A DNA stretch of 34,493 bases, taken from a virus (lineage: Duplodnaviria; Heunggongvirae; Uroviricota; Caudoviricetes). The notes below the pieces were generated by a model that searched no databases, was not told the origin of the DNA, and worked only from the letters and a program-made list of their open reading frames with translations. Of this stretch, positions 761 to 24,349 are shown piece after piece. Location: IMG/VR virus record IMGVR_UViG_2698536450_000021, positions 1 to 34,493 of that record. One strand, written 5' to 3'. Position 1 is the first letter of the stretch. Each line of letters starts with the position of its first letter. Position numbers and translations under genes: made by a program.

Positions 761-1614
761 GCACCATCCTGAAATGGGCGGGAAATAAAACCGCCATTAT
801 GTTCGAACTGAAAAAACACCTTCCTGCTGGCCCGCGACTGGTTGAACCTTTCGCGGGTTCCTGTGCTGTGATGATGGAGACGGATTACCCCAGCTATCTG
901 GTTGCGGATATTAATCCTGATTTAATCAACCTCTATAAAAAGGTTGCCGCTGATTGTGAATCGTTTATATCTCGCGCCAGAGCTTTATTTGAGGAAGCAA
1001 ACAGGGAGGTGGCTTATTACAACATAAGGCAGGAGTTTAATTACTCCACTGAAATTACTGATTTCATGAAAGCGGTATATTTCCTGTATCTCAATCGTCA
1101 TGGTTACCGTGGATTATGTCGCTATAACAAGAGCGGGCATTTCAACATTCCGTACGGTAATTATAAAAATCCGTATTTCCCTGAAAAAGAAATTCGCGCA
1201 TTTGCAGAGAAAGCCCAGCGTGCAACGTTTATCTGCGCAAGCTTTGATGAAACGCTGGCGATGCTGCAGGTGGGGGATGTGGTGTATTGCGATCCGCCGT
1301 ATGACGGTACGTTTTCCGGCTATCACACTGATGGTTTCACTGAAGATGACCAGTATCACCTGGCATCCGTTCTTGAACATCGGTCATCAGAAGGACATCC
1401 GGTCATTGTTTCTAACAGTGATACATCCCTGATCCGTTCGCTGTATCGCAATTTTACTCACCACTACATCAAGGCAAAACGCAGCATCGGTGTAGCAGCT
1501 GGTGAGAGTAAATCTTCAACAGAAATCATCGCTGTTTCCGGGCCGCGCTGCTGGGTGGGATTTGATCCTTCGCGTGGCGTGGATAGTTCTGCCGTGTACG
1601 GAGTGCGTGCATGA
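757..1614 (+). CDS. DNA N6-adenine methyltransferase (Dam-like)
   Basis: N-terminal ILKWAGNK motif and catalytic DPPY (1291-1302); ATG at 757 after GGAGG; stop overlaps the start of gene A (ATGA). Track ORF 685-1614 is an upstream extension. Confidence 0.85.
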
Positions 1615-4025
1615 GCCATGCTGATATGAACAACTGCAGCGGCTTTAACGAGGTCGCCGCAGCATTCTCATGGAACAGCCCGAAAAAGGCCATTAACCCT
1701 TATCTGGACCCGGCGGAAGTTGCGCCGGTTTCTGTGCTTTCAAACCTGATCACTCTGTACGCTACCGATAACGAGCAGGAACAACTGCGCCGCGAGGCTC
1801 TGAGTGATCAGGTATGGGAGCGTTATTTCTTTAATGAATCACGTGATCCTGTCCAGCGCGAAATGGAGCAGGATAAGCTCATTAGCCGGGCAAAGCTGGC
1901 GCATGAGCAGCAGCGTTTTAATCCGGGCATGGTCATCCTGGCGGACGTTAACGCCCAGCCTTCCCATATCAGCAAGCCGCTGATGCAACGTATTGAATAC
2001 TTCAGCAGCCTGGGCAGGCCAAAGGCTTATTCCCGCTATTTGCGTGAGACGATTAAGCCATGTCTGGAACGACTGGAGCATGTACGCGACAGTCAGCTAT
2101 CCACTTCTTTTCGCTTTATGGCAAGCCATGAAGGGCTGGACGGTCTGCTGATCCTGCCTGAAATGAGTCAGGATCAGGTGAAACGCCTGTCCACCCTGGT
2201 AGCTGCGCATATGAGCATGTGCCTTGATGCCGCTTGTGGCGATTTGTATGCCACCGATGACGTTAAGCCAGAAGAAATCCGCAAGACATGGGAAAAGGTG
2301 GCGGCGGAAACCCTGCGACTGGATGTCATACCACCTGCGTTTGAGCAACTCCGCCGGAAAAGAAACCGCCGTAAACCCGTGCCCTATGAACTCATTCCGG
2401 GGTCGCTGGCGCGTATGCTGTGCGCCGACTGGTGGTATCGGAAATTGTGGAAGATGCGTTGCGAATGGCGGGAAGAGCAGTTGCGTGCTGTTTGCCTGGT
2501 CAGCAAAAAAGCATCTCCCTATGTCAGCTATGAAGCCGTGATGCATAAACGTGAGCAGCGCCGTAAGTCGCTGGAGTTTTTCCGTTCTCATGAACTGGTG
2601 AACGAAGACGGCGACACGCTGGACATGGAGGATGTGGTAAACGCCAGCAGCAGCAACCCTGCGCATCGCCGCAATGAGATGATGGCCTGTGTTAAAGGTC
2701 TGGAGCTTATCGCGGAAATGCGCGGTGACTGCGCCGTTTTCTACACCATCACCTGTCCGTCACGTTTCCATTCCACGCTAAATAACGGCAGGCCCAACCC
2801 GACCTGGACAAATGCGACGGTAAGACAAAGCAGTGATTATCTGGTCGGCATGTTTGCTGCATTTCGTAAGGCGATGCACAAAGCCGGGTTGCGCTGGTAT
2901 GGCGTGCGGGTGGCTGAGCCGCATCATGACGGCACAGTTCACTGGCACCTGTTGTGTTTCATGCGCAAAAAAGACCGCCGCGCCATTACTGCATTGTTGC
3001 GTAAGTTTGCTATCCGTGAAGACCGCGAGGAGCTGGGTAATAACACGGGGCCACGCTTTAAGTCTGAGCTGATAAACCCGCGCAAAGGAACGCCGACTAG
3101 CTACATCGCGAAATACATCAGTAAGAACATTGACGGGCGTGGTCTGGCTGGCGAGATCAGCAAGGAAACGGGTAAATCTCTGCGTGATAACGCTGAATAC
3201 GTTAATGCCTGGGCGTCTCTGCATCGTGTTCAGCAATTCCGCTTCTTTGGCATTCCGGGGCGTCAGGCTTACCGTGAACTGCGATTGCTGGCTGGTCAGG
3301 CGGCAAGGCAACAGGGTGACAAAAAAGCAGGTGCGCCGGTACTGGATAACCCGCGCCTTGATGCCATTCTGGCTGCAGCTGATGCTGGTTGTTTTGCCAC
3401 CTACATCATGAAGCAGGGCGGCGTACTGGTTCCCCGTAAATATCACCTCATCAGAACCGCTTATGAAATCAACGAAGAGCCGACCGCCTATGGCGATCAC
3501 GGCATTCGTATTTATGGCATCTGGTCACCCATTGCAGAGGGCAAAATCTGCACTCATGCCGTGAAGTGGAAAATGGTTCGTAAGGCCGTTGACGTTCAGG
3601 AGGCGGCAGCCGACCAGGGCGCTTGCGCCCCTTGGACTCGTGGCAATAACTGTCCCCTTGCTGAAAATTTGAACCAACAGGAGAAAGATAAATCAGCTGA
3701 TGGGGACACCAGAACGGATATTACCCGCATGGATGACAAGGAGTTGCACGATTATCTGCATAGTATGAGCAAAAAAGAGCGCCGGGAACTGGCAGCAAGG
3801 TTACGCCTGGTTAAGCCGAAACGGCGTAAAGACTACAAACAGCGAATTACAGATCATCAGCGACAGCAGCTCGTCTATGAACTGAAGTCCAGAGGATTTG
3901 ATGGCAGCGAGAAAGAGGTCGATTTACTCCTTCGCGGTGGCAGTATTCCGTCAGGAGCAGGCCTGCGTATCTTCTATCGGAACCAGCGTTTGCAGGAAGA
4001 TGATAAGTGGAGAAACCTGTATTAA
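1611..4025 (+). CDS. replication initiation endonuclease, P2 gpA / 186 A family (rolling-circle nickase)
   Basis: 804-aa ORF carrying the conserved tyrosine block [12 protein letters not shown]; position upstream of the cos/late region matches P2/186 organisation. Confidence 0.88.
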
Positions 4026-4177: not shown

Positions 4178-4366
4178 ATGCAGGACTATTTTTTGGAGTC
4201 TTTGAAGCTCCAGCGCATTGATTTTTTTCTTAAGCTTGTAGCGGCTAGTGAGTGTAGTGATGAAGAGAAGGGGCTGGCTCTGCAGTGGGTTTCTGAACTG
4301 ACAGATGAACTCATGGCAAAAATCAGAACCCACGAATACAACCGCTCAATGGATGTCATCAGCTGA
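4178..4366 (+). CDS. small hypothetical protein (62 aa), first gene of the putative SOS-controlled operon
   Basis: ORF with strong RBS (AGGAGG 4169-4174) directly downstream of the LexA box; no recognisable domain. Confidence 0.45.
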   Translation: MQDYFLESLKLQRIDFFLKLVAASECSDEEKGLALQWVSELTDELMAKIRTHEYNRSMDVIS

Positions 4367-4376
4367 GGTGACTTTT

Positions 4377-4610
4377 ATGCGCATTGAAATAATGATCGAT
4401 AAAGAGCAGAAGATTAGCCAGTCTACACTGGACGCCCTTGAATCCGAGCTTTACCGCAATCTGCGCCCCCTGTATCCCAAAACGGTAATTCGTATTCGCA
4501 AAGGTAGCTCTAACGGTGTGGAACTGACCGGACTGCAACTGGACGAAGAAAGAAAACAAGTGATGAAAATTATGCAGAAGGTGTGGGAAGACGACAGCTG
4601 GCTGCATTAA
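4377..4610 (+). CDS. DinI-like protein (phage Tum/DinI family)
   Basis: 77 aa; MRIE...DALESEL...KIMQKVWEDDSW aligns by eye along its length with E. coli DinI. ATG at 4377; the track ORF from 4305 is an upstream extension. Confidence 0.75.
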   Translation: MRIEIMIDKEQKISQSTLDALESELYRNLRPLYPKTVIRIRKGSSNGVELTGLQLDEERKQVMKIMQKVWEDDSWLH

Positions 4611-4745
4611 GAAACGTTGCTGGCGTCTGAACTTGTTTCTGGCGTCAGCAAGGTTGAACAACGAGCCCTTGCGAGGCGTTAGCTCTGTAGTGCATGTCTA
4701 TGCCGCATGAGATCGCATGATCGTTTGAGGATCGTTTTTGCTAAG

Positions 4746-4770
4746 GCCCGCCAGAACTGGCGGGCTTTTG
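4746..4770 (+). terminator. rho-independent terminator after the DinI-like operon
   Basis: GCCCGCCAG / CTGGCGGGC 9-bp perfect stem followed by TTTT. Confidence 0.55.
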
Positions 4771-4814
4771 CGTAGATCATGCACCTGCATGAAAACCACT
4801 ACATAAAGCGGGCA

Positions 4815-4833
4815 GGCGTGGCGGGGATACGAG
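4815..4833. other. cos-like sequence (possible cohesive-end site) GGCGTGGCGGGGATACGAG
   Basis: First 12-13 nt resemble the P2/186 cohesive-end motif GGCG(A/T)GGCGGGGA as I recall it, followed by a GCGCGCT run. Recalled from memory, not verified. Confidence 0.3.
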
Positions 4834-4885
4834 CGCGCGCTATCACGTAAAATAGGCAAAATACTTCTGGAAAACAGAAAGTTGA

Positions 4886-6832
<1,947 letters not shown>

Positions 6833-6836
6833 TGAA

Positions 6837-6871
6837 CAGCCCTAACGTTATGAATGCTAAGGCTGATTTTT
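6837..6871 (+). terminator. possible terminator downstream of the RT gene
   Basis: Imperfect hairpin CAGCC...GGCTG (6837-6865) followed by ATTTTT. Confidence 0.35.
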
Positions 6872-6873
6872 CG

Positions 6874-7902
6874 TTAAAATTTATATGGTTTGAATTGTAA
6901 TATATTATCTTCAAGCCATTTATTTAATTCCTGCATCCTTTTCTGTAAGGGTATTAATTCGTTCCTCACAAACACTAAACTCGCTTTTTCCACATCCCCA
7001 AACCCCCCGACATTATTTGGCATAATCCCCATCATTTGCGGTGGCACACGGTGCGCTGCCATCATGTCATCGCGGCTGACATTTTTGATATTCAGAAACT
7101 CATCCTTCGCCGCCACTTCTGACAACGGGATAATCTGAAGCCCGTCCTTTTTACCGTTAGGCGAGTACATAAACAGGTTACGGAAGTTACCAGGACCTTT
7201 GGCGCTTTTCATCGCATTGCGGAGGTTGTTCACATCCTCCTGGTTCTGCGCTGCATCGGTCATGTACATGATGAAGCCTGCATGACTGCCGTTAATGTAA
7301 TACTTGCGGCGGAACAGCGTGGCGGACTCGTTGAGCAGAGCTGACGGAATGGCAGAAAGATAACCGGGCAGGCCGTAGATCTCCTGGTTGATGTCCGGTT
7401 CCATCAGATGAAAAATGTTGCCTTTCGTGAACTGATACGGCTGCGTAGTCATGCCGTATTGCACAAACCAGTAGGTATCAAGGTCTAACCCGCGTCGGGT
7501 GTATTTTGCCAGTGCAGGCTCAAGGGCGATAACTTCACCGAAGCGGTTCGTGCGTTTCTCCAGGTAGGCGTTACCAAAAACCAGATAGTCCTGTACAAAA
7601 CGCGAAAAAGCCTGCTGGCTGAGCAGCGGGTGAGGGATGTAGGTGCTGGTCAGAATGTTGCACTTCACTGCAATCGGTGAGCTGTGATGCACGGCGGCGC
7701 GGAAGGTTCGCGCCAGTCCGTCGAAACTCACAGGCGGCTCGTACCAACGATCCATCTGTACGCATTCCACATAGTCCAGCAGTTCGCGGCGGTCCAGAAC
7801 AGGAACGGGATCACCGAAGCTGAATGCTTCGGCTGAAGTCTGGCTTTTATGCTGGATCTGTTTCGTCGACGCAGCGCGGTTCTTCTTACTCTTTCCCATC
7901 AA
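6874..7902 (-). CDS. portal protein (P2 gpQ-like)
   Basis: 342-aa ORF recognised as P2-family portal; start overlaps the terminase stop. Confidence 0.88.
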   Translation of the reverse strand: MMGKSKKNRAASTKQIQHKSQTSAEAFSFGDPVPVLDRRELLDYVECVQMDRWYEPPVSFDGLARTFRAAVHHSSPIAVKCNILTSTYIPHPLLSQQAFSRFVQDYLVFGNAYLEKRTNRFGEVIALEPALAKYTRRGLDLDTYWFVQYGMTTQPYQFTKGNIFHLMEPDINQEIYGLPGYLSAIPSALLNESATLFRRKYYINGSHAGFIMYMTDAAQNQEDVNNLRNAMKSAKGPGNFRNLFMYSPNGKKDGLQIIPLSEVAAKDEFLNIKNVSRDDMMAAHRVPPQMMGIMPNNVGGFGDVEKASLVFVRNELIPLQKRMQELNKWLEDNILQFKPYKF

Positions 7903-9665
7903 AAAATCTCCACAATATTGCTGGTATTGGCGGACTCGCCCTGCAGCGGTTCGTTAAACAGTGCGTGCATTGTTGCCCAGGCCAGATCGGCATGGCTGGC
8001 TTCTTCGCTGCGGCTGGCTTCATAGGTCGGGCGGTTGCCACTGGCAGTGGTAGCGCGACGGATTGCCATAAATGACTGCGCAATGTCGGTGTGCCCGGCG
8101 TCAAACTCCAGACGGCGGTGGCTGATAATGTCGTAGGCCTTGAGTACCAGGGCGTTTTTAACGTTGGGGTTATAGACAAACTCCCTGACGGCAGGAAAAA
8201 ACGCTTTCACGTTCTCGTAAACCCCGTGACCGACGCCGGTCGAGTCGATACCGATATAGGTCACGTTATACTGTTCGGTCAGTTTTTTGATGGCGTCAGC
8301 CTGGGCGCGGAAGTCCATCCCGCGCCACTGGTGACGCTCAAGAATGCGGAACTTACCACCCGGCACGGCTGGCGGAGCCACCACCACGCATCCGGCACTG
8401 TCGCCGTTCTGCGTACCTTTTGCCGGGTCATAACCGATCCACACTTCGCGCCAGCCAAACGGGTGCAGGGCCAGTGCATGAAAGTCGGTCCAGACTTCCC
8501 AGCTGTCCACCATGCACGCCTGCAGTTCGCTGAGCGGGAACACGGACGCGAGATCGTCCACGAACTCGCACATCAGCAGGTTCTGGTATTCGTCCGGGCT
8601 GTACTCCATGCGCAGCTGGTCGAGGTCGAACAGGTTACAGCCGCCGCGCACCGCATCTTCCACGGTGACTATCTGGCGGTATTGCCCGTCTGCGCACAGC
8701 AGGCCGGGGGCCAGATTGCTGTGGGACAGGTCGATGTCCACCTTGTCAGCTTTGTTGCGTCCACGGTTGAACAGCGCACCGGACCAGAACGGATAAGCAC
8801 TGTGGGTCAGGCTGGATGGCGTGGAAAAATAGGTTTGTCGCCATTTCTTGTGAATAGCCATCCCGGAAGCCACTTTGCGCAGCTCCTGGAATTTCGGTAT
8901 CCAGAAATATTCATCCAGATACAGGTTGCCGTGATAACTCTGGGCCGTGCGGGCATTGGTGCCGAGGAAGTAAAGCGTGGCTCCGTTAGGAAGCACCATC
9001 GGATCGCCTTTTAGCTCCACCTCGACTTCTTTGGCGAAGTCGATGATGTATTGTTTAAAGACGTGGGCCTGAGCCTTACTGGCAGAAAGGAAAATCTGGT
9101 TACGTCCGGTAAGCAGGGCGTCAATCAGGGCTTCACGGGCAAAATAGAAGGTCGCGCCGATCTGGCGAGACTTCAGCAGGTTGCGGATGCGGTTGGTTTT
9201 TCCGGCTTCCCACCAGTGGCGCTGGTAGTTGAACATGGAGGAATGGAAGATTTCTTCCAGCTTCTCAATCTGCTCATCGGTGAAAACATTCTTTTCCGGC
9301 TGACGGCGCGGGCCTTTGTTGCGGTTGGCGACGTTAGGGTTTAAGTCGGCTTCGTTGCCGCCATTGTTAAATTTGCCGATCCGCGCGTGGCGCTCCGACT
9401 GGCGCGCCAGCAGGTCAATCTCTTTGAAATCTTTCCCTTCTTTGTGCTCCTTCATGATGAGCTGGCAGTAGCGTGCGGCGGTGGTGAGCTGCATCTGATC
9501 CAGCGGCCCATAGTCACCCCACTTGTCGCGTTTTTTCCAGCTGTGAACGGTTGCAACTTTCTCGCCCAGCATTTCAGCAATGCGGGCTACGCGGTATCCC
9601 TGAAAGTACAGCAGCATGGCCTGCCGACGGGGATCGAGATCTGCGGGTGTCAGTGTGGTGTTCAT
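7899..9665 (-). CDS. terminase large (ATPase) subunit (P2 gpP-like)
   Basis: 588-aa ORF transcribed divergently from the capsid operon, as in P2. Confidence 0.88.
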   Translation of the reverse strand: MNTTLTPADLDPRRQAMLLYFQGYRVARIAEMLGEKVATVHSWKKRDKWGDYGPLDQMQLTTAARYCQLIMKEHKEGKDFKEIDLLARQSERHARIGKFNNGGNEADLNPNVANRNKGPRRQPEKNVFTDEQIEKLEEIFHSSMFNYQRHWWEAGKTNRIRNLLKSRQIGATFYFAREALIDALLTGRNQIFLSASKAQAHVFKQYIIDFAKEVEVELKGDPMVLPNGATLYFLGTNARTAQSYHGNLYLDEYFWIPKFQELRKVASGMAIHKKWRQTYFSTPSSLTHSAYPFWSGALFNRGRNKADKVDIDLSHSNLAPGLLCADGQYRQIVTVEDAVRGGCNLFDLDQLRMEYSPDEYQNLLMCEFVDDLASVFPLSELQACMVDSWEVWTDFHALALHPFGWREVWIGYDPAKGTQNGDSAGCVVVAPPAVPGGKFRILERHQWRGMDFRAQADAIKKLTEQYNVTYIGIDSTGVGHGVYENVKAFFPAVREFVYNPNVKNALVLKAYDIISHRRLEFDAGHTDIAQSFMAIRRATTASGNRPTYEASRSEEASHADLAWATMHALFNEPLQGESANTSNIVEIF

Positions 9666-9807: not shown

Positions 9808-10641
9808 ATGACAGTGAAAGCAAAGCGTTTTCGCATCGGGGTGGAAGGTGCCACCACCGACGGACGCGAAATCCAGCGTGAATGGCTGGAACAGATGGCA
9901 GCCAGCTACAACCCCGCAGTGTATACCGCGCTGATTAACCTTGAGCACATCAAGTCTTATCTGCCGGACAGCACCTTTAACCGCTACGGCAAGGTGACGG
10001 CGCTGTTTGCTGAAGAAATCACGGAAGGCCCGCTGGCAGGCAAGATGGCGCTGTATGCCGACGTTGAGCCAACGGAGTCCCTGGTGGAGCTGGTGAAAAA
10101 AGGCCAGAAATTATTCACCTCTATGGAAGTCAGCCCGAAGTTCGCTGATACGGGCAAAGCCTACCTGGTTGGCCTGGCTGCCACTGATGATCCAGCCAGT
10201 CTGGGTACGGAAATGCTGACATTCAGCGCCAGTGCAGCCCATAACCCGTTGGCAAACCGCAAGCAGAATCCCGCCAATCTTTTTACCGCTGCAGAGGAAA
10301 CGGTGATCGAACTGGAAGAAGTCCAGGATGACAAACCGTCCCTGTTTGCCCGCGTCACGGCGCTGTTCACCAAAAAAGAGCAGTCAGACGATGCCCGGTT
10401 CTCTGATGTGCATAAGGCCGTGGAGCTGGTCGCCACTGAGCAGCAGAACCTGAGCACACGCACCGAAAAATCCCTGGCTGAACAGGAAGAACGCCTGTCT
10501 GAGCTGGAGACTGCTCTGCAGGAGCAGCAAACCGCCTTTAAAGAACTGGTGAATAAGCTGAGTCATGAAGACAGCCGCCAGGACTACCGCCAGCGTGCAA
10601 CAGGCGGTAACGCCCCCGCTGACACTCTGACCAATTGCTGA
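9808..10641 (+). CDS. capsid scaffolding protein (P2 gpO-like)
   Basis: N-terminal FRIGVEGATTDGREI block matches gpO; position before the major capsid gene. Confidence 0.85.
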   Translation: MTVKAKRFRIGVEGATTDGREIQREWLEQMAASYNPAVYTALINLEHIKSYLPDSTFNRYGKVTALFAEEITEGPLAGKMALYADVEPTESLVELVKKGQKLFTSMEVSPKFADTGKAYLVGLAATDDPASLGTEMLTFSASAAHNPLANRKQNPANLFTAAEETVIELEEVQDDKPSLFARVTALFTKKEQSDDARFSDVHKAVELVATEQQNLSTRTEKSLAEQEERLSELETALQEQQTAFKELVNKLSHEDSRQDYRQRATGGNAPADTLTNC

Positions 10642-10657
10642 TGGAGCACAAAACCTG

Positions 10658-11716
10658 ATGAAGAAGAATACCCGCTTTGCTTTTAACGCTTACCTGCAGC
10701 AGCTGGCGCGTCTGAACGGTGTGGCAGTTGAAGAACTGTCCAGCAAGTTCACCGTGGAGCCGTCTGTACAGCAGACGCTGGAAGACCAGATCCAGCAGTC
10801 CGCCGCTTTCCTGACGCTGATTAACGTCACGCCAGTGACTGAGCAGTCCGGTCAGCTGCTGGGGTTGGGTGTTGGTAGCACCATTGCCGGAACCACTGAC
10901 ACCACCGCGAAAGAGCGTGAACCTGTCGATCCTACGCTGATGGTCGATGTTGAATACAAATGCGAGCAGACCAACTTTGACACGGTACTGACCTACGCGA
11001 AGCTGGACCTGTGGGCGAAGTTTCAGGATTTCCAGGTGCGTATCCGTGACGCCATCGTGAAACGTCAGGCACTGGACCGCATCATGATCGGCTTTAACGG
11101 CGTGAAGCGTGCGAAAACCTCCAACCGTAGCGAAAACCCGCTGCTGCAGGATGTGAATAAAGGCTGGCTGCAGAAAATCCGTGAGGATGCACCGGATCAC
11201 GTCATGGGCAGCACCACCACGGGTGGTGAAACCACACCGGGTGCGGTGAAAGTCGGGAAAGGTGGCGAATATGCCAACCTGGACGCCGTAGTGATGGATG
11301 CCGTCAATGAGCTTATCGACGTGGTTTACCAGGACGATGACGATCTGGTGGTGATTTGCGGGCGTGAACTGCTGTCTGACAAGTATTTCCCGCTGGTCAA
11401 CAAAGAGCAGGAAAACAGTGAAAAACTGGCTGCCGATATGATCATCAGTCAGAAACGCATGGGGGGCCTGCAGGCCGTGCGTGCGCCGTTCTTCCCGCCG
11501 AATGCGCTGCTGATCACCCGTCTGGATAACCTGTCCATCTACTGGCAGGAAGACACCTGCCGCCGTTCAGTTATTGACAACCCGAAACGTGACCGGATTG
11601 AAAACTTTGAATCTGTTAACGAAGCCTATGTGGTTGAGGACTACCGCTGCGCCGCACTGGTGGAAAACATCCAGATTGGCGACTTCAGCGCCGCCGCAGC
11701 AGAAACCGGAGCGTAA
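10658..11716 (+). CDS. major capsid protein (P2 gpN-like)
   Basis: 352 aa, extensive by-eye identity to P2 gpN (TRFAFNAYL..., FTVEPSVQQTL..., IISQKRMGGLQAVR...). Confidence 0.9.
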   Translation: MKKNTRFAFNAYLQQLARLNGVAVEELSSKFTVEPSVQQTLEDQIQQSAAFLTLINVTPVTEQSGQLLGLGVGSTIAGTTDTTAKEREPVDPTLMVDVEYKCEQTNFDTVLTYAKLDLWAKFQDFQVRIRDAIVKRQALDRIMIGFNGVKRAKTSNRSENPLLQDVNKGWLQKIREDAPDHVMGSTTTGGETTPGAVKVGKGGEYANLDAVVMDAVNELIDVVYQDDDDLVVICGRELLSDKYFPLVNKEQENSEKLAADMIISQKRMGGLQAVRAPFFPPNALLITRLDNLSIYWQEDTCRRSVIDNPKRDRIENFESVNEAYVVEDYRCAALVENIQIGDFSAAAAETGA

Positions 11717-11719
11717 TCC

Positions 11720-20478: not shown

Positions 20479-21137
20479 GCTTCCATAAGGATTATAAAAT
20501 GTCGAGCATAATATACTACAGCTCTATAAATAATGCATTTTACCCTGAGCATTTGAAACAAGAATATATTAAATCTAATTCTTTTCCAGCAGATGCAAAA
20601 CCCGTTAAATATTCTGTTTTCGAAGAATTTGCACTTAAACCAGCACCAGAAGGAAAATACAGGTGCGTTGGTGAAGATGGAATGCCATCATGGGCAGATA
20701 TTCCACCACCAACACATGAGGAACAGATTGCCGCAGCCGAATTGAAAAAGCAGCAATTGATTAACCAGGTCAACGAATACATGAACAGTAAACAATGGCC
20801 CGGTAAAGCGGCTATTGGTCGTCTGAAAGGTGAGGAACTGGCGCAATATAATTTGTGGCTGGATTATCTGGACGCACTGGAACTGGTTGATACCTCCAGT
20901 GCTCCAGATATTGAATGGCCTACGCCTCCGGCAGTTCAGGCCAGATGACATCCGGCGCGGTGCTGGTATCTGTTGCCGTCACCGCGTCAATGTAATCCAG
21001 CACGGCGTTAAGTCGGGTGTTTTCTGTCTGCGTCAGCTTCCGCCCGGCCTGTAATTTCAGTTGAATCAGACTGATAGAAGCCATTGCAGCATCAATCAGC
21101 GACTGGCGCTGTGCTTCTGCCGCTTCTACTGCGGCGC
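20140..21137. repeat. 998-bp perfect inverted repeat, left arm (variable H cassette A + Tfa-A + inverted 3' fragment of Tfa-B); partner at 22704-23701
   Basis: Paired coordinates sum to 43841; identical ORF translations appear on opposite strands in the track (e.g. 20475-20948 + and 22893-23366 -). Confidence 0.9.
20499..20948 (+). CDS. tail fibre assembly chaperone, Tfa-A (P2 gpG / Mu U-like)
   Basis: ATG at 20499 after AAGGA; conserved C-terminal Tfa block; follows the fibre gene. Confidence 0.8.
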   Translation: MSSIIYYSSINNAFYPEHLKQEYIKSNSFPADAKPVKYSVFEEFALKPAPEGKYRCVGEDGMPSWADIPPPTHEEQIAAAELKKQQLINQVNEYMNSKQWPGKAAIGRLKGEELAQYNLWLDYLDALELVDTSSAPDIEWPTPPAVQAR

Positions 21138-21138
21138 A

Positions 21139-21821
21139 TGCTGATTACCAGCAGTACGGACAATATCACCCTGAAAATCGACCCTGCTGTAGTGCTGGCA
21201 ACCCGTAAATACGTGGATGATGAAGTCCTGGAATTAAAGCTGTATGTGGATGACCAGATGAGAAACCACATTGCCGCACAAGATCCTCATACCCAGTATG
21301 CGCAGAAACATAATCCGACATTTACCGGAGAACCAAAAGCGCCGACGCCTGCAGCAGGAAATAACACCACGCGGATTGCGACCACTGAGTTTGTTCAGGC
21401 CGCTATTACTGCTCTGATTAACGGTGCGCCAGCCACGCTGGACACACTGAAAGAAATTGCCGCAGCCATTAACAATGACCCGAAATTCAGTACCACCATT
21501 AACAATGCGCTGGCACTAAAAGCGCCGCTGTCGAGTCCGGCACTCACCGGAACGCCAACAGCACCTACTGCGGCGCAGTCGGTCAACAATACACAGATTG
21601 CCACTACGGCTTTTGTGAAATCGGCGATTGCAGGAATGGTGGGTTCTGCACCTGCGGCACTGGATACACTGAACGAACTGGCGGCGGCACTGGGGAATGA
21701 TCCGAACTTTGCCACGACAATGCTTAATGCGCTGGCAGGTAAACAACCGCTGGACAATACGCTTACCAATTTGAGCGGAAAGGATGTATCTGGTCTTCTC
21801 ACATACCTTGGTTTGGGAGAA
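21139..21821. repeat. 683-bp direct repeat, copy 2 (truncated duplicate of the H middle region, ending in crossover site 3)
   Basis: Identical to 19457-20139; junction with the upstream inverted-repeat arm at 21131-21143. Confidence 0.85.
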
Positions 21822-22319
21822 GGTTCGGCATTACCCGTTGGTGTGCCTGTTCCGTGGCCTTCCGCCACTCCGCCAACAGGCTGGCTGAAATGCAACGGTG
21901 CAGCATTTTCTGCTGAAGAATACCCGGAACTGGCAAAGGCTTACCCGACAAATAAATTGCCTGATTTACGTGGTGAGTTTATTCGTGGCTGGGATGACGG
22001 ACGTGGTATGGATACGGGGAGGGCAATATTATCAGCTCAGGGCGATGCCATACGTAATATCTATGGTGAGTTCAGAACTGTAAACACTGAAAATTATTCA
22101 ATATGGGAAACAGCAGGCTCGTTTAAGGGGGCCATAGTGCCATTGAGTCCCTCTACAAACAATAGTTATTTCTCCTTAACCAGAAGTATGGTGACAGAAA
22201 GAGCAGACGGCGCTGTTTACCCAAAAGTGATTGGCCTTGATGCTTCAAGAATTGTTCCAACTGCAAACGAAAATCGACCCCGTAACATTGCCTTTAATTA
22301 TATCGTGAGGGCTGCCTGA
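21139..22319 (+). CDS. promoterless alternative tail-fibre cassette: duplicated H middle segment fused to a distinct C-terminal domain (cassette B)
   Basis: In-frame continuation through site 3 into a different C-terminus (GSALPVGVPVPWPSATPPTGWLKCNGAAFSAEEYPELA...), a collar/receptor-binding-type tail-fibre end; lacks the H N-terminus, so probably silent in this configuration. Confidence 0.55.
21796..21821. repeat. gix/hix-like crossover site 3 (identical to site 1, direct orientation)
   Basis: Same 26 bp as 20114-20139; sequence diverges from the H copy immediately after it (variable cassette B). Confidence 0.6.
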
Positions 22320-22921
22320 TGGAGAAAGCTATATTAAATAAGGAACTCATCGCCACAAAGGCGGGAGATATTACCGTTTATAATTATGATGGTGAAACGC
22401 GGGAATATATTTCTACATCAACTGAATATCTTGCTGTTGGCGTCGGTATCCCGGCATGTTCTTGTTTAGATGCGCCAGTTACACATAAAGCTGGTTATGC
22501 TATCTGCCGCTCAGCAGATTTTAACTCATGGGAATATGTGCCAGACCATCGCGGTGAAATTGTCTATAACACCGAAACGGGAGATGCCAAAGAAATCACA
22601 GCACCAGGCGACTATCCCGAAAAAACAACCACTCTCGCACCGTTAACGCCATACGATAAATGGGATGGTGAGAAATGGGTGACCGATACTGAGGCACAGC
22701 ATAGCGCCGCAGTAGAAGCGGCAGAAGCACAGCGCCAGTCGCTGATTGATGCTGCAATGGCTTCTATCAGTCTGATTCAACTGAAATTACAGGCCGGGCG
22801 GAAGCTGACGCAGACAGAAAACACCCGACTTAACGCCGTGCTGGATTACATTGACGCGGTGACGGCAACAGATACCAGCACCGCGCCGGATGTCATCTGG
22901 CCTGAACTGCCGGAGGCGTAG
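22319..22921 (+). CDS. tail fibre assembly chaperone, Tfa-B (paired with cassette B)
   Basis: 200 aa, C-terminal block TAPDVIWPELPEA similar to Tfa-A; 3' end overlaps the inverted Tfa-A' gene convergently by 29 bp. Confidence 0.8.
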   Translation: MEKAILNKELIATKAGDITVYNYDGETREYISTSTEYLAVGVGIPACSCLDAPVTHKAGYAICRSADFNSWEYVPDHRGEIVYNTETGDAKEITAPGDYPEKTTTLAPLTPYDKWDGEKWVTDTEAQHSAAVEAAEAQRQSLIDAAMASISLIQLKLQAGRKLTQTENTRLNAVLDYIDAVTATDTSTAPDVIWPELPEA

Positions 22922-23342
22922 GCCATTCAATATCTGGAGCACTGGAGGTATCAACCAGTTCCAGTGCGTCCAGATAATCCAGCCACAAATTATATTGCGC
23001 CAGTTCCTCACCTTTCAGACGACCAATAGCCGCTTTACCGGGCCATTGTTTACTGTTCATGTATTCGTTGACCTGGTTAATCAATTGCTGCTTTTTCAAT
23101 TCGGCTGCGGCAATCTGTTCCTCATGTGTTGGTGGTGGAATATCTGCCCATGATGGCATTCCATCTTCACCAACGCACCTGTATTTTCCTTCTGGTGCTG
23201 GTTTAAGTGCAAATTCTTCGAAAACAGAATATTTAACGGGTTTTGCATCTGCTGGAAAAGAATTAGATTTAATATATTCTTGTTTCAAATGCTCAGGGTA
23301 AAATGCATTATTTATAGAGCTGTAGTATATTATGCTCGACAT
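22893..23342 (-). CDS. tail fibre assembly chaperone, Tfa-A' (identical inverted copy of Tfa-A)
   Basis: Track ORF 22893-23366 (-) translates identically to 20475-20948 (+). Confidence 0.8.
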   Translation of the reverse strand: MSSIIYYSSINNAFYPEHLKQEYIKSNSFPADAKPVKYSVFEEFALKPAPEGKYRCVGEDGMPSWADIPPPTHEEQIAAAELKKQQLINQVNEYMNSKQWPGKAAIGRLKGEELAQYNLWLDYLDALELVDTSSAPDIEWPTPPAVQAR

Positions 23343-23362
23343 TTTATAATCCTTATGGAAGC

Positions 23363-23701
23363 TCAATATCCCAGTACCAGAAAATCACCTGTTTCAGTTG
23401 CGGCTGAAGTTGATATAGTCCTTGCAGCACAAATGGCCTTTAATTCTGTTTTTGTTAGTTCGGACACTCCCCAGGAATTAATACCTATTGGGCCTGTGGA
23501 TACTGCGGTTTTTTCAGCAATAAATGCCATAAATGCAGAATTTGGAAAAGCAATAGGATAACTTCCTGTTGCAACACCAGTTTTACTATCAGAAGGTCCG
23601 ATTCTTCCCCATTGGATAATAAAAGACTTCCCCTCTATAACAGGGATTTTTATCCAGCCAGATGATGATAAAGAGCCACTAATCGCAGGCAATTTGGCCG
23701 C
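23363..23701 (-). CDS. inverted copy of variable tail-fibre C-terminal cassette A (start-less cassette that would be fused to H after inversion)
   Basis: Track ORF 23363-23755 (-) translates to the same C-terminal 113 aa as H (AAKLPAISGSL...FLVLGY). Confidence 0.7.
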   Translation of the reverse strand, partial: AAKLPAISGSLSSSGWIKIPVIEGKSFIIQWGRIGPSDSKTGVATGSYPIAFPNSAFMAFIAEKTAVSTGPIGINSWGVSELTKTELKAICAARTISTSAATETGDFLVLGY

Positions 23702-23727
23702 TTCTCCCAAACCAACGTTTAAGAAAA
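23702..23727. repeat. gix/hix-like crossover site 2 (inverted relative to sites 1 and 3)
   Basis: TTCTCCCAAACC AA CGTTTAAGAAAA; its inner half-site is the reverse complement of the inner half of site 1; lies 55 bp upstream of the invertase start. Confidence 0.55.
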
Positions 23728-23782
23728 TGCAGCGATTACGACTAACTGGCATCATCCCCGGTTTTTATTCAGGGGATTGATC

Positions 23783-24349
23783 ATGCTTATTGGCTATGTA
23801 CGCGTGTCAACAAATGACCAGAACACCGATTTGCAACGTAATGCACTGAACTGCGCGGGATGTGAGCGGATTTTTGAGGACAAAATCAGTGGCACTAAGT
23901 CCGACAGACCGGGGCTTAAAAAACTGCTCAGGACACTATCGGCAGGTGACACACTGGTTGTCTGGAAGCTGGACAGGTTGGGGCGCAGTATGCGGCATCT
24001 CGTTACGCTGATAGAAGATCTGCGCCAGCGTGGCGTGAATTTCCGAAGCCTGACTGACAGTATTGATACCAGTACCTCAATGGGCCGTTTCTTTTTTCAT
24101 GTCATGGGGGCCCTGGCTGAAATGGAACGCGAACTGATAGTTGAACGTACCAGGGCAGGGCTGGCTGCAGCTCGCGCCAAAGGCAGAGTAGGTGGACGCC
24201 GTCCTAAGTTGACTACCGAACAGTGGGCACAGATTGGACGTTTACTCGAGGCCGGAGAATCAAGACAGCGTATTGCACTGATTTTTGATGTGGGCGTTTC
24301 TACCATTTATAGAAAATTTCCGGCGAATGAGAACAATGAATCGCCCTGA
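23783..24349 (+). CDS. serine-recombinase DNA invertase (Gin/Pin/Cin/Hin family)
   Basis: MLIGYVRVSTNDQNTDLQRNAL... with catalytic Ser in the YVRVS motif and a C-terminal HTH; near-collinear by eye with Gin/Pin. Confidence 0.9.
   Translation: MLIGYVRVSTNDQNTDLQRNALNCAGCERIFEDKISGTKSDRPGLKKLLRTLSAGDTLVVWKLDRLGRSMRHLVTLIEDLRQRGVNFRSLTDSIDTSTSMGRFFFHVMGALAEMERELIVERTRAGLAAARAKGRVGGRRPKLTTEQWAQIGRLLEAGESRQRIALIFDVGVSTIYRKFPANENNESP

Follow-up and report, generated by a model that had tools for sequence, protein, structure and literature searches.

The stretch of DNA described here, which we call the window throughout (34,493 nucleotides, taken at its full length), holds a Fels-2/186-like P2-family prophage that is integrated beside ybjL in Escherichia coli. 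Its genes and landmarks, away from the packaging site itself, are listed below.

685-1614: Dam methylase (ORF and Pfam)
1611-4025: replication protein gpA (ORF and Pfam)
4377-4610, plus strand: DinI/Tum-like SOS-modulator gene, the last of the early/SOS operon before cos (Pfam DinI, E = 6.6e-23)
6874-7899, minus strand: portal gene, a gpQ/W homologue (Pfam Phage_portal; stop codon at 6874-6876)
7899-9665, minus strand: terminase large subunit, a gpP homologue, full length at 588 aa (Pfam Terminase_6N, Terminase_6C and Terminase_5)
9808-12370: scaffold, major capsid and terminase small subunit (ORFs and Pfam)
11720-12370, plus strand: terminase small subunit, a gpM homologue, full length at 216 aa (Pfam Phage_term_smal, E = 2e-40)
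15633-16568, minus strand: FRG-domain protein (Pfam FRG; PADLOC candidate defense family PDC-S15, E = 8.5e-32)
19078-24349: tail-fiber region, with two tail-fiber ORFs and a tail-fiber assembly gene
22893-23755: reverse-strand ORFs in the tail-fiber region
23777-24349: serine invertase (Resolvase and HTH_7)
31421-31640: Ogr-like zinc-finger ORF
31700-31780: hairpin and probable prophage end (attR), between ogr and the host genes

The genes for both terminase subunits, the portal, the scaffold and the capsid are all full length. The DinI/Tum-like gene occupies the place of tum in 186 and of DinI in Fels-2, and the order gpA, DinI, terminator, cos, cargo (where there is any), portal and terminase is that of 186, P2, Fels-2 and others. 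With cargo between cos and portal, the same order is also found in Fels-2, vB_EcoM-813R9, Klebsiella phage ST512-KPC3phi13.2 and Escherichia phage 500465-1. The interval between DinI and cos (4611-4689) is a second variable slot, filled by an ORF of 225-243 aa in Fels-2, 186 and the ST512 phage and by none in the window. Farther along, the FRG-domain gene lies antisense among late tail and morphogenesis genes and marks a second cargo site of the prophage, and the tail-fiber region is probably an invertible host-range segment. The prophage ends near 31.7 kb, where the host genes ybjL (31874-33559, minus strand) and ybjM begin. PMC7826664 gives the Ec67 element as 34 kb flanked by 26-bp repeats, a description that the layout of ogr, attR and ybjL fits.

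Between the early operon and the portal gene lies the packaging site, the cos of the prophage. Its parts are given with offsets counted from the top-strand nick.

4690-4840, plus strand: whole conserved cos block (-125 to +26), 151 bp, from the IMG/VR conservation profile
4691-4718, plus strand: three GCAT(G) repeats (-124, -111, -101), their position kept in P2, P4, 186 and the Fels-2 type
4745-4769, plus strand: rho-independent terminator of the DinI operon (GGCCCGCCAG-AACT-CTGGCGGGC, then TTTT), found by folding, inside the cos block
4786-4840, plus strand: 55-bp cos core (-29 to +26), the block common to P2 and its satellite P4
4815-4833, plus strand: 19-nt cohesive end, in register with the annotated ends of 186, P2, EtG and SEN8

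The cohesive end reads GGCGTGGCGGGGATACGAG on the plus strand and occurs once in the window; CGCGCGCT follows directly at 4834-4841, with CGCGCGC adjoining the 19-mer on its 3' side. A preliminary description of this DNA had picked out the 19-mer at just this place, and had likened it to the P2/186 cohesive-end region. The P2/186 sequences it gave were accurate: the ends annotated at positions 1-19 of their respective records are GGCGTGGCGGGGAAAGCAT for 186 and GGCGAGGCGGGGAAAGCAC for P2. The window sequence is identical to the former at 15/19 positions and to the latter at 14/19. Its first 13 nucleotides are those of 186, from which it departs at positions 14, 16, 17 and 19; P2 adds a mismatch at position 5. 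The conserved 5' part of P2-family cos ends, GG(C/T)G(A/T)GGCGGGG, is present, and the 13-mer GGCGWGGCGGGGA is a single copy when both strands of the 34.5-kb window are scanned (0.09 chance matches are expected in the window at one mismatch or fewer). A scan of the window with the P2/186 19-mer consensus gave no match at three mismatches or fewer, because the variant carries four to five differences, all of those from 186 lying in positions 14-19.

It is the flanks, not the 19-mer alone, that prove the site to be a cos. We circularized the genomes of 186, P2 and P4 and took the top-strand nick as the common anchor of the alignment. About 45 nucleotides upstream and seven downstream of the 19-mer fall in register with all three phages, without a gap either upstream of the nick (a stretch that includes TGCATgAAAACC and runs up to the nick with ATAAAGcGGGCA) or downstream of it (the 19-mer, then CGCGCGC). 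BLAST agrees: the annotated cos region of phage Cartapus is matched at E = 8e-24, and positions 1-26 of SEN8 at E = 4.5e-8. The 19-mer itself lines up with the ends annotated for 186, P2 and EtG, as well as with the cos of SEN8 (1-19), in a register that predicts nicks at 4814/4815 on the top strand and at 4833/4834 on the bottom, leaving a 19-nt 5' overhang. Alignment thus found cos homology at the very place where the preliminary description had looked for it, flanks included.

How far does the site extend? P2 and P4 are near-identical exactly from -29 to +26 and unrelated outside, and this common block coincides with the 55-bp cos core of Ziermann & Calendar 1990, as quoted in PMC5694545. 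Over this core (4786-4840), identity to the window is 55/55 in Fels-2, 54/55 in SEN8, 44/55 in 186, 43/55 in P4 and 42/55 in P2; Cartapus is identical at 55/55 to 4787-4841. To see beyond the core we scanned IMG/VR with the exact 36-mer covering -10 to +26, the window 19-mer included, and found it in at least 119 viral contigs. Among the matches listed, 116 contigs had enough flank for a conservation profile; their selection by the 36-mer forces conservation from -10 to +26, and only the flanks are informative. From -125 to -11 these 116 listed contigs are mostly conserved at 0.9 or above, and conservation falls to about 0.4 at -126 and again at +27, where it equals background. These limits define the cos block as 4690-4840. 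In this block the window has other than the majority base at only five positions, all of them polymorphic, where its own base is found in 21-38% of the listed loci; compared with those loci it has no private substitution anywhere from -125 to +26. Of the 15 E. coli genomes with an Ec67-family retron in the slot, 13 part from the window upstream of 4689, at the -126 edge of the block.

The architecture of this block is that of P2, 186 and P4 throughout: it has GCAT repeats near -124, -111 and -101, a core that spans -29 to +26, GGCG(A/T)GGCGGGGA at +1 to +13 and GCGCGC at +21 to +26, and it too has the early right-end genes on one side and the portal gene on the other. P2, P4 and 186 have TGCAT at -124/-123, -111 and -101, and at these offsets the window reads TGCAT, CGCAT and CGCAT, the kept spacing making the repeats candidate terminase-recognition (binding) elements. 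The sequence between the repeats and the core differs among the P2, P4/186 and Fels-2 groups. It is here that the terminator of the DinI operon lies, in the position of t95b of 186 (fold of 4735-4815: -33.5 kcal/mol, z = -4.6). What sets the window apart from P2 and 186 is the second half of the cohesive end, with TACGAG at positions 14-19 where those phages have AAGCA(C/T), and position +20, which is C as in P4 and T in P2 and 186.

That divergent half had been taken in the preliminary description as a possible sign of a defective cos, a suspicion that does not survive comparison with other phages: the same 19-mer is the cos of SEN8 and lies in that of Cartapus, besides being carried by the IMG/VR contigs counted above. 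Together with CGCGCGC it is identical in Fels-2, 813R9 and ST512-KPC3phi13.2. The record of Salmonella phage SEN8, a phage propagated from a plaque, begins with the exact window 19-mer, and its authors annotate precisely these nucleotides as cos (PMC5427200). Cartapus, a prophage of E. coli LF82 that yields some 3.3e5 encapsidated genomes per mL (PMC9928086), has the 19-mer within its annotated cos region. Both records call it a 'putative cos site', an annotation made by homology. The variant is common to Fels-2, SEN8, Cartapus and many Klebsiella and Salmonella prophages. Even the distant Ralstonia phage phiRSA1, whose ends are quoted as GGTGAGGCGGGGTCCAAC in PMC5694545, keeps a 5' half of about 12 nucleotides and varies in the 3' half. 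Judged by these sequences, a conserved 5' part joined to a variable 3' part is a family trait of the cohesive end, and the TACGAG half is the standard Fels-2-type sequence, not damage. One relative does differ in its record. Escherichia phage 500465-1 (NC_049342; about 4195-4213 of locus L005) has a 1-nt deletion within its cohesive end (GGCGTG-CGGGGATACGAG); in the same record the CDSs of portal and terminase are split and IS fragments occur, so that it represents either a degraded prophage or a low-quality assembly.

Immediately beyond the cos block comes the cargo, a retron, whose features are as follows.

4847-4864 (+33 to +50), plus strand: GTAAAATAGGCAAAATAC, a possible ancestral-spacer relic (15/18 match to empty sites)
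4865-4893, plus strand: putative retron promoter (-35 TTCTGG at 4865-4870, 17-nt spacer, -10 TGATAT at 4888-4893), read from the sequence
4904-5034, plus strand: Ec67 msr-msd non-coding RNA, with inverted repeats a1 (4904-4916) and a2 (5022-5034)
5072-6832, plus strand: RT-Toprim fusion of retron Ec67 (Eco2), type I-C, 586 aa (PADLOC RT-Toprim_I-C; Pfam RVT_1)
6837-6871, no strand assigned: hairpin (CAGCC...GGCTG) with a T-run, folding on both strands, in the 41-bp gap before the portal stop

The retron is a single-protein system in which the RT carries a Toprim domain at its C terminus. PADLOC matches RT-Toprim_I-C over residues 2-583 at E = 4e-217, the reverse transcriptase (RT) gene closing with TAA at 6830-6832, and the locus is 99.9% identical in a complete E. 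coli genome, where PGAP names the product 'retron Ec67 family RNA-directed DNA polymerase/endonuclease'. PGAP starts the protein at an upstream ATG within msd, which gives 626 aa (20353-22233 of L013, equivalent to window 4952-6832); the published RT of 586 aa corresponds to the ATG at 5072. The same length, 586 residues, is recorded for RT-Eco2 in PMC6868368. The segment 4900-5040 folds at -59.3 kcal/mol (z = -4.9) into a 13-bp closing stem with internal hairpins. An Rfam search of 4500-7200 returned no retron or other meaningful RNA family, its two matches (E = 0.16 and 0.91) being chance. Nor did a consensus scan for promoters and terminators flag the putative promoter at 4865-4893: its hits were no more numerous than in shuffled sequence, and it missed both the DinI-operon terminator and the hairpin between RT and portal, which were found by folding. 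The product associated with retron Ec67/Eco2 is a 67-nt msDNA. Anti-phage defense activity of Eco2 is reported in the abstracts of PMC12916289 and PMC12405507. The arrangement of cos, retron and portal recurs at about 99% identity in 14 complete E. coli genomes, and a 15th has a retron that is 74% identical.

Retrons are one kind of cargo among many at this place. In relatives the slot holds a TIR protein (500465-1), a 565-aa ORF (Fels-2), Hypoth_Ymh (813R9), Abi (Klebsiella phages including ST512-KPC3phi13.2), a hypothetical protein with an HNH endonuclease (SEN8), or a DUF4145 protein (Cartapus). The IMG/VR matches tell the same story at larger scale. Right after +26, 94 distinct 40-mers occur among the listed loci (at least 119), and for the matches listed the distance from +26 to the portal stop runs from 149 to 3527 bp (median 1543), compared with 2033 bp in the window. 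Ten of the listed matches are 'empty' sites, with a spacer of 149-181 bp that contains a GC-rich terminator, and nine encode an RT: two are identical to Ec67, one is 54% identical to it, and six are at about 30% identity. Three of these last six were classified, as retron types II-A (an NDT effector with RT, the Ec86 architecture), I-A and IX, which brings the types seen in the slot among the matches listed to four (I-C, II-A, I-A and IX). In the 54%-identical locus (L090, IMG/VR 3300013942_000011), the RT-Toprim lies about 270-2020 nt after cos and is broken into two ORFs (223 and 307 aa), which may mean a pseudogene or a sequencing error. The listed loci, all of which were drawn by a 36-mer that includes helper-type bases at -10 to -1, yielded no homologue of P4 Psu, and no P4-like satellite with a TACGAG-type cos was seen among the IMG/VR matches listed. 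What the loci have in common is a pair of conserved flanks, cos and portal, with unrelated and interchangeable genes between them, which is what defines a hotspot. Such a cargo hotspot at cos was reportedly suggested earlier, by Dodd & Egan in 1996 and by Nakayama et al. in 1999. The region between gpA and gpQ beside cos has since been described as a P2 defense hotspot with retrons among its cargo (Rousset et al. 2022, Cell Host Microbe, PMC9122126), and the variable cargo of the window occupies the same interval. P2 itself carries its cargo (old and tin) on the other side of cos; in the window, by contrast, the cargo lies toward the portal, and the side between DinI and cos is without any.

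Most of these relatives have unrelated sequence from +27 onward, which means that the DNA beyond +27 is dispensable for cos; and since all family-conserved cos sequence lies upstream of +27, the DNA from there to the portal was free to vary and became a cargo slot. This matters for the alternative that 4815-4833 is a true cos homologue that no longer functions, the retron replacement or the altered 3' half having crippled packaging and left a cryptic prophage. The loss of the ancestral spacer and terminator after +50 speaks for it, as do the four to five departures from the experimentally defined ends of P2 and 186, but the lost DNA is of the dispensable kind, and the departures are those of Fels-2 (19-mer and 55-bp core alike) and of Cartapus (4787-4841, 55/55). 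SEN8 and Cartapus, moreover, are made as virions, the window has no change of its own from -125 to +26, its terminase and head genes are intact, and an arrangement about 99% identical in 14 complete E. coli genomes fits continued spread. We regard a non-functional cos as quite unlikely, and keep to the reading of a functional-type site.

The junctions of the cassette say something about how it came to be there. Most cargo cassettes diverge at +27, right where the 55-bp core ends. The empty sites have GT(G/A)AAATGG(T/C)(G/C)AAAATCC at +33 to +50, and all Ec67 loci compared (the window and two IMG/VR contigs) have GTAAAATAGGCAAAATAC in the same register. This A-rich motif is common to empty spacers (GTGAAATGGTGAAAATCC) and is found in part in SEN8 and 186; most cargo loci lack it. 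By its position and likeness, GTAAAATAGGCAAAATAC may be left over from the ancestral spacer, or else be an accessory element that cos can do without, a role that the motif could have in empty and Ec67 sites alike. Because the Ec67 loci keep it, the left junction of the Ec67 cassette probably falls at about 4864/4865, the point at which a plausible -35 hexamer begins.

On the right, a gap of 41 bp (6833-6873) separates the convergent stop codons of RT (6830-6832) and portal (6874-6876). The preliminary description had counted it correctly and had argued that it could not hold a cos; the window has no other cos-like sequence. The hairpin at 6837-6871 within this gap folds at -12.3 and -14.1 kcal/mol on its two strands (z = -2.5 and -3.5), and is a probable terminator for RT that possibly serves the portal operon too. 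It shows no similarity to the terminators of empty sites, and the terminator that follows +50 in the empty-site spacer is absent from the window. None of the relatives aligned extends upstream of the portal stop into the gap. The end of the portal gene is itself unusual, with a GC content of 0.26-0.28 at 6850-6950 as against about 0.5 further in, and an identity to relatives of 68-76% over 6874-6990; in longer alignments of the portal gene the closest relatives reach 87-92%. A diverged stretch over the last 100 or so nucleotides (6874 to about 6960), as AT-rich in character as the retron, indicates that the right junction lies inside the portal 3' end, which by its composition appears to be part of the exchanged segment. 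We considered whether such an end might be specific to the retron and rejected the idea: other, non-retron loci have AT-rich and diverged portal 3' ends as well, which makes this a general property of the slot. From these sequences, cassettes seem to be exchanged together with their own portal C-terminal 30 or so codons. One might go further and picture recombination proceeding from the terminase-cut left end, with the portal 3' end as second homology arm, so that cassette and portal C terminus travel together and cos cleavage itself creates the hotspot; we hold this fuller scheme to be doubtful.

The preliminary description had the retron inserted between cos and the late operon. The location stands, borne out by flank alignment and gene order; the word 'inserted' does not, for a spacer of 149-181 bp and its terminator are gone, and the retron replaces them. 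A comparison of the two junction zones (4830-4880 on the left, 6820-6970 on the right) found no target-site duplication or terminal repeats, the longest direct word being 6 nt, no better than in shuffles, and the longest inverted one 7 nt. The missing duplication argues for recombinational replacement over transposition, and we rejected a transposition-like insertion on that ground. It also weighs on the proposal that the retron is a self-mobile element, directed to cos-adjacent DNA by its own RT/endonuclease in a form of retrotransposition, rather than passive recombined cargo. The original description was titled to present Ec67 as 'a potential transposable element' (as cited in PMC7826664), and the presence of several unrelated retron types in one slot among the listed IMG/VR matches might be read the same way; but the slot takes TIR, Abi, Hypoth_Ymh, DUF4145 and HNH cargo too, and the right junction appears to lie in a diverged portal stretch, as expected for recombination between related phages. 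Self-mobility is very improbable. As for a chance GC-rich match with the real cos elsewhere in the prophage, there is scarcely any room for it: an identity of only 15/19 to 186 and the empty consensus scan at three mismatches or fewer are outweighed by a 13-mer unique in the window, flanks that keep register with many P2-family phages for more than 150 bp, the canonical position (after the terminator of the DinI operon and before the portal 3' end), and the want of any other candidate, the RT-portal gap being too small, and the alignments refute it.

The best explanation, in which we have high confidence, is that 4815-4833 is the cohesive end of a functional-type cos of the Fels-2/186-like P2 family, and that the retron is cargo replacing a spacer. 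By analogy with P2 and 186, the gpM and gpP terminase would recognize 4690-4840 on replicated circular DNA and would nick the top strand ahead of 4815 and the bottom strand beyond 4833, generating 19-nt 5' cohesive ends. That would leave the retron at the left extremity of the virion chromosome, and lysogeny would carry it into new hosts. The prophage is predicted to be competent for packaging.

None of this is a new arrangement. The order of cos, retron and portal has been known since 1996 and was generalized in 2022. As cited in PMC6868368, PMC7826664 and PMC5694545, the earlier study (Dodd & Egan, Virology 1996) found that in a 186-related prophage the DNA from cos to a terminator had been replaced by retrons, Ec67 and Ec86 being the two described. 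Their Ec67 prophage shares with the window the 586-aa RT-Toprim and the msr-msd, a Dam methylase gene upstream of gpA, the neighboring ybjL/ybjM, and a retron that follows directly on cos, ahead of the packaging genes, and replaces a spacer of about 180 bp; as far as the citing papers describe it, there is no substantive difference between the two. The terminator that formed their boundary may be the hairpin at 6837-6871.

An arrangement published in 1996 makes the finding correct but ordinary. Its value lies in placing the packaging site of this prophage at 4690-4840, a correct annotation and little beyond. The conservation limits of -125 to +26 could help in the design of cos plasmids, or in spotting the site in P2-like prophages that lack annotation. 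The IMG/VR survey recovers the published cargo and defense hotspot for one cos type, with several retron types in it. And with a normal Fels-2-type cos beside it, the retron could spread by lysogeny in a genome that would be packageable.
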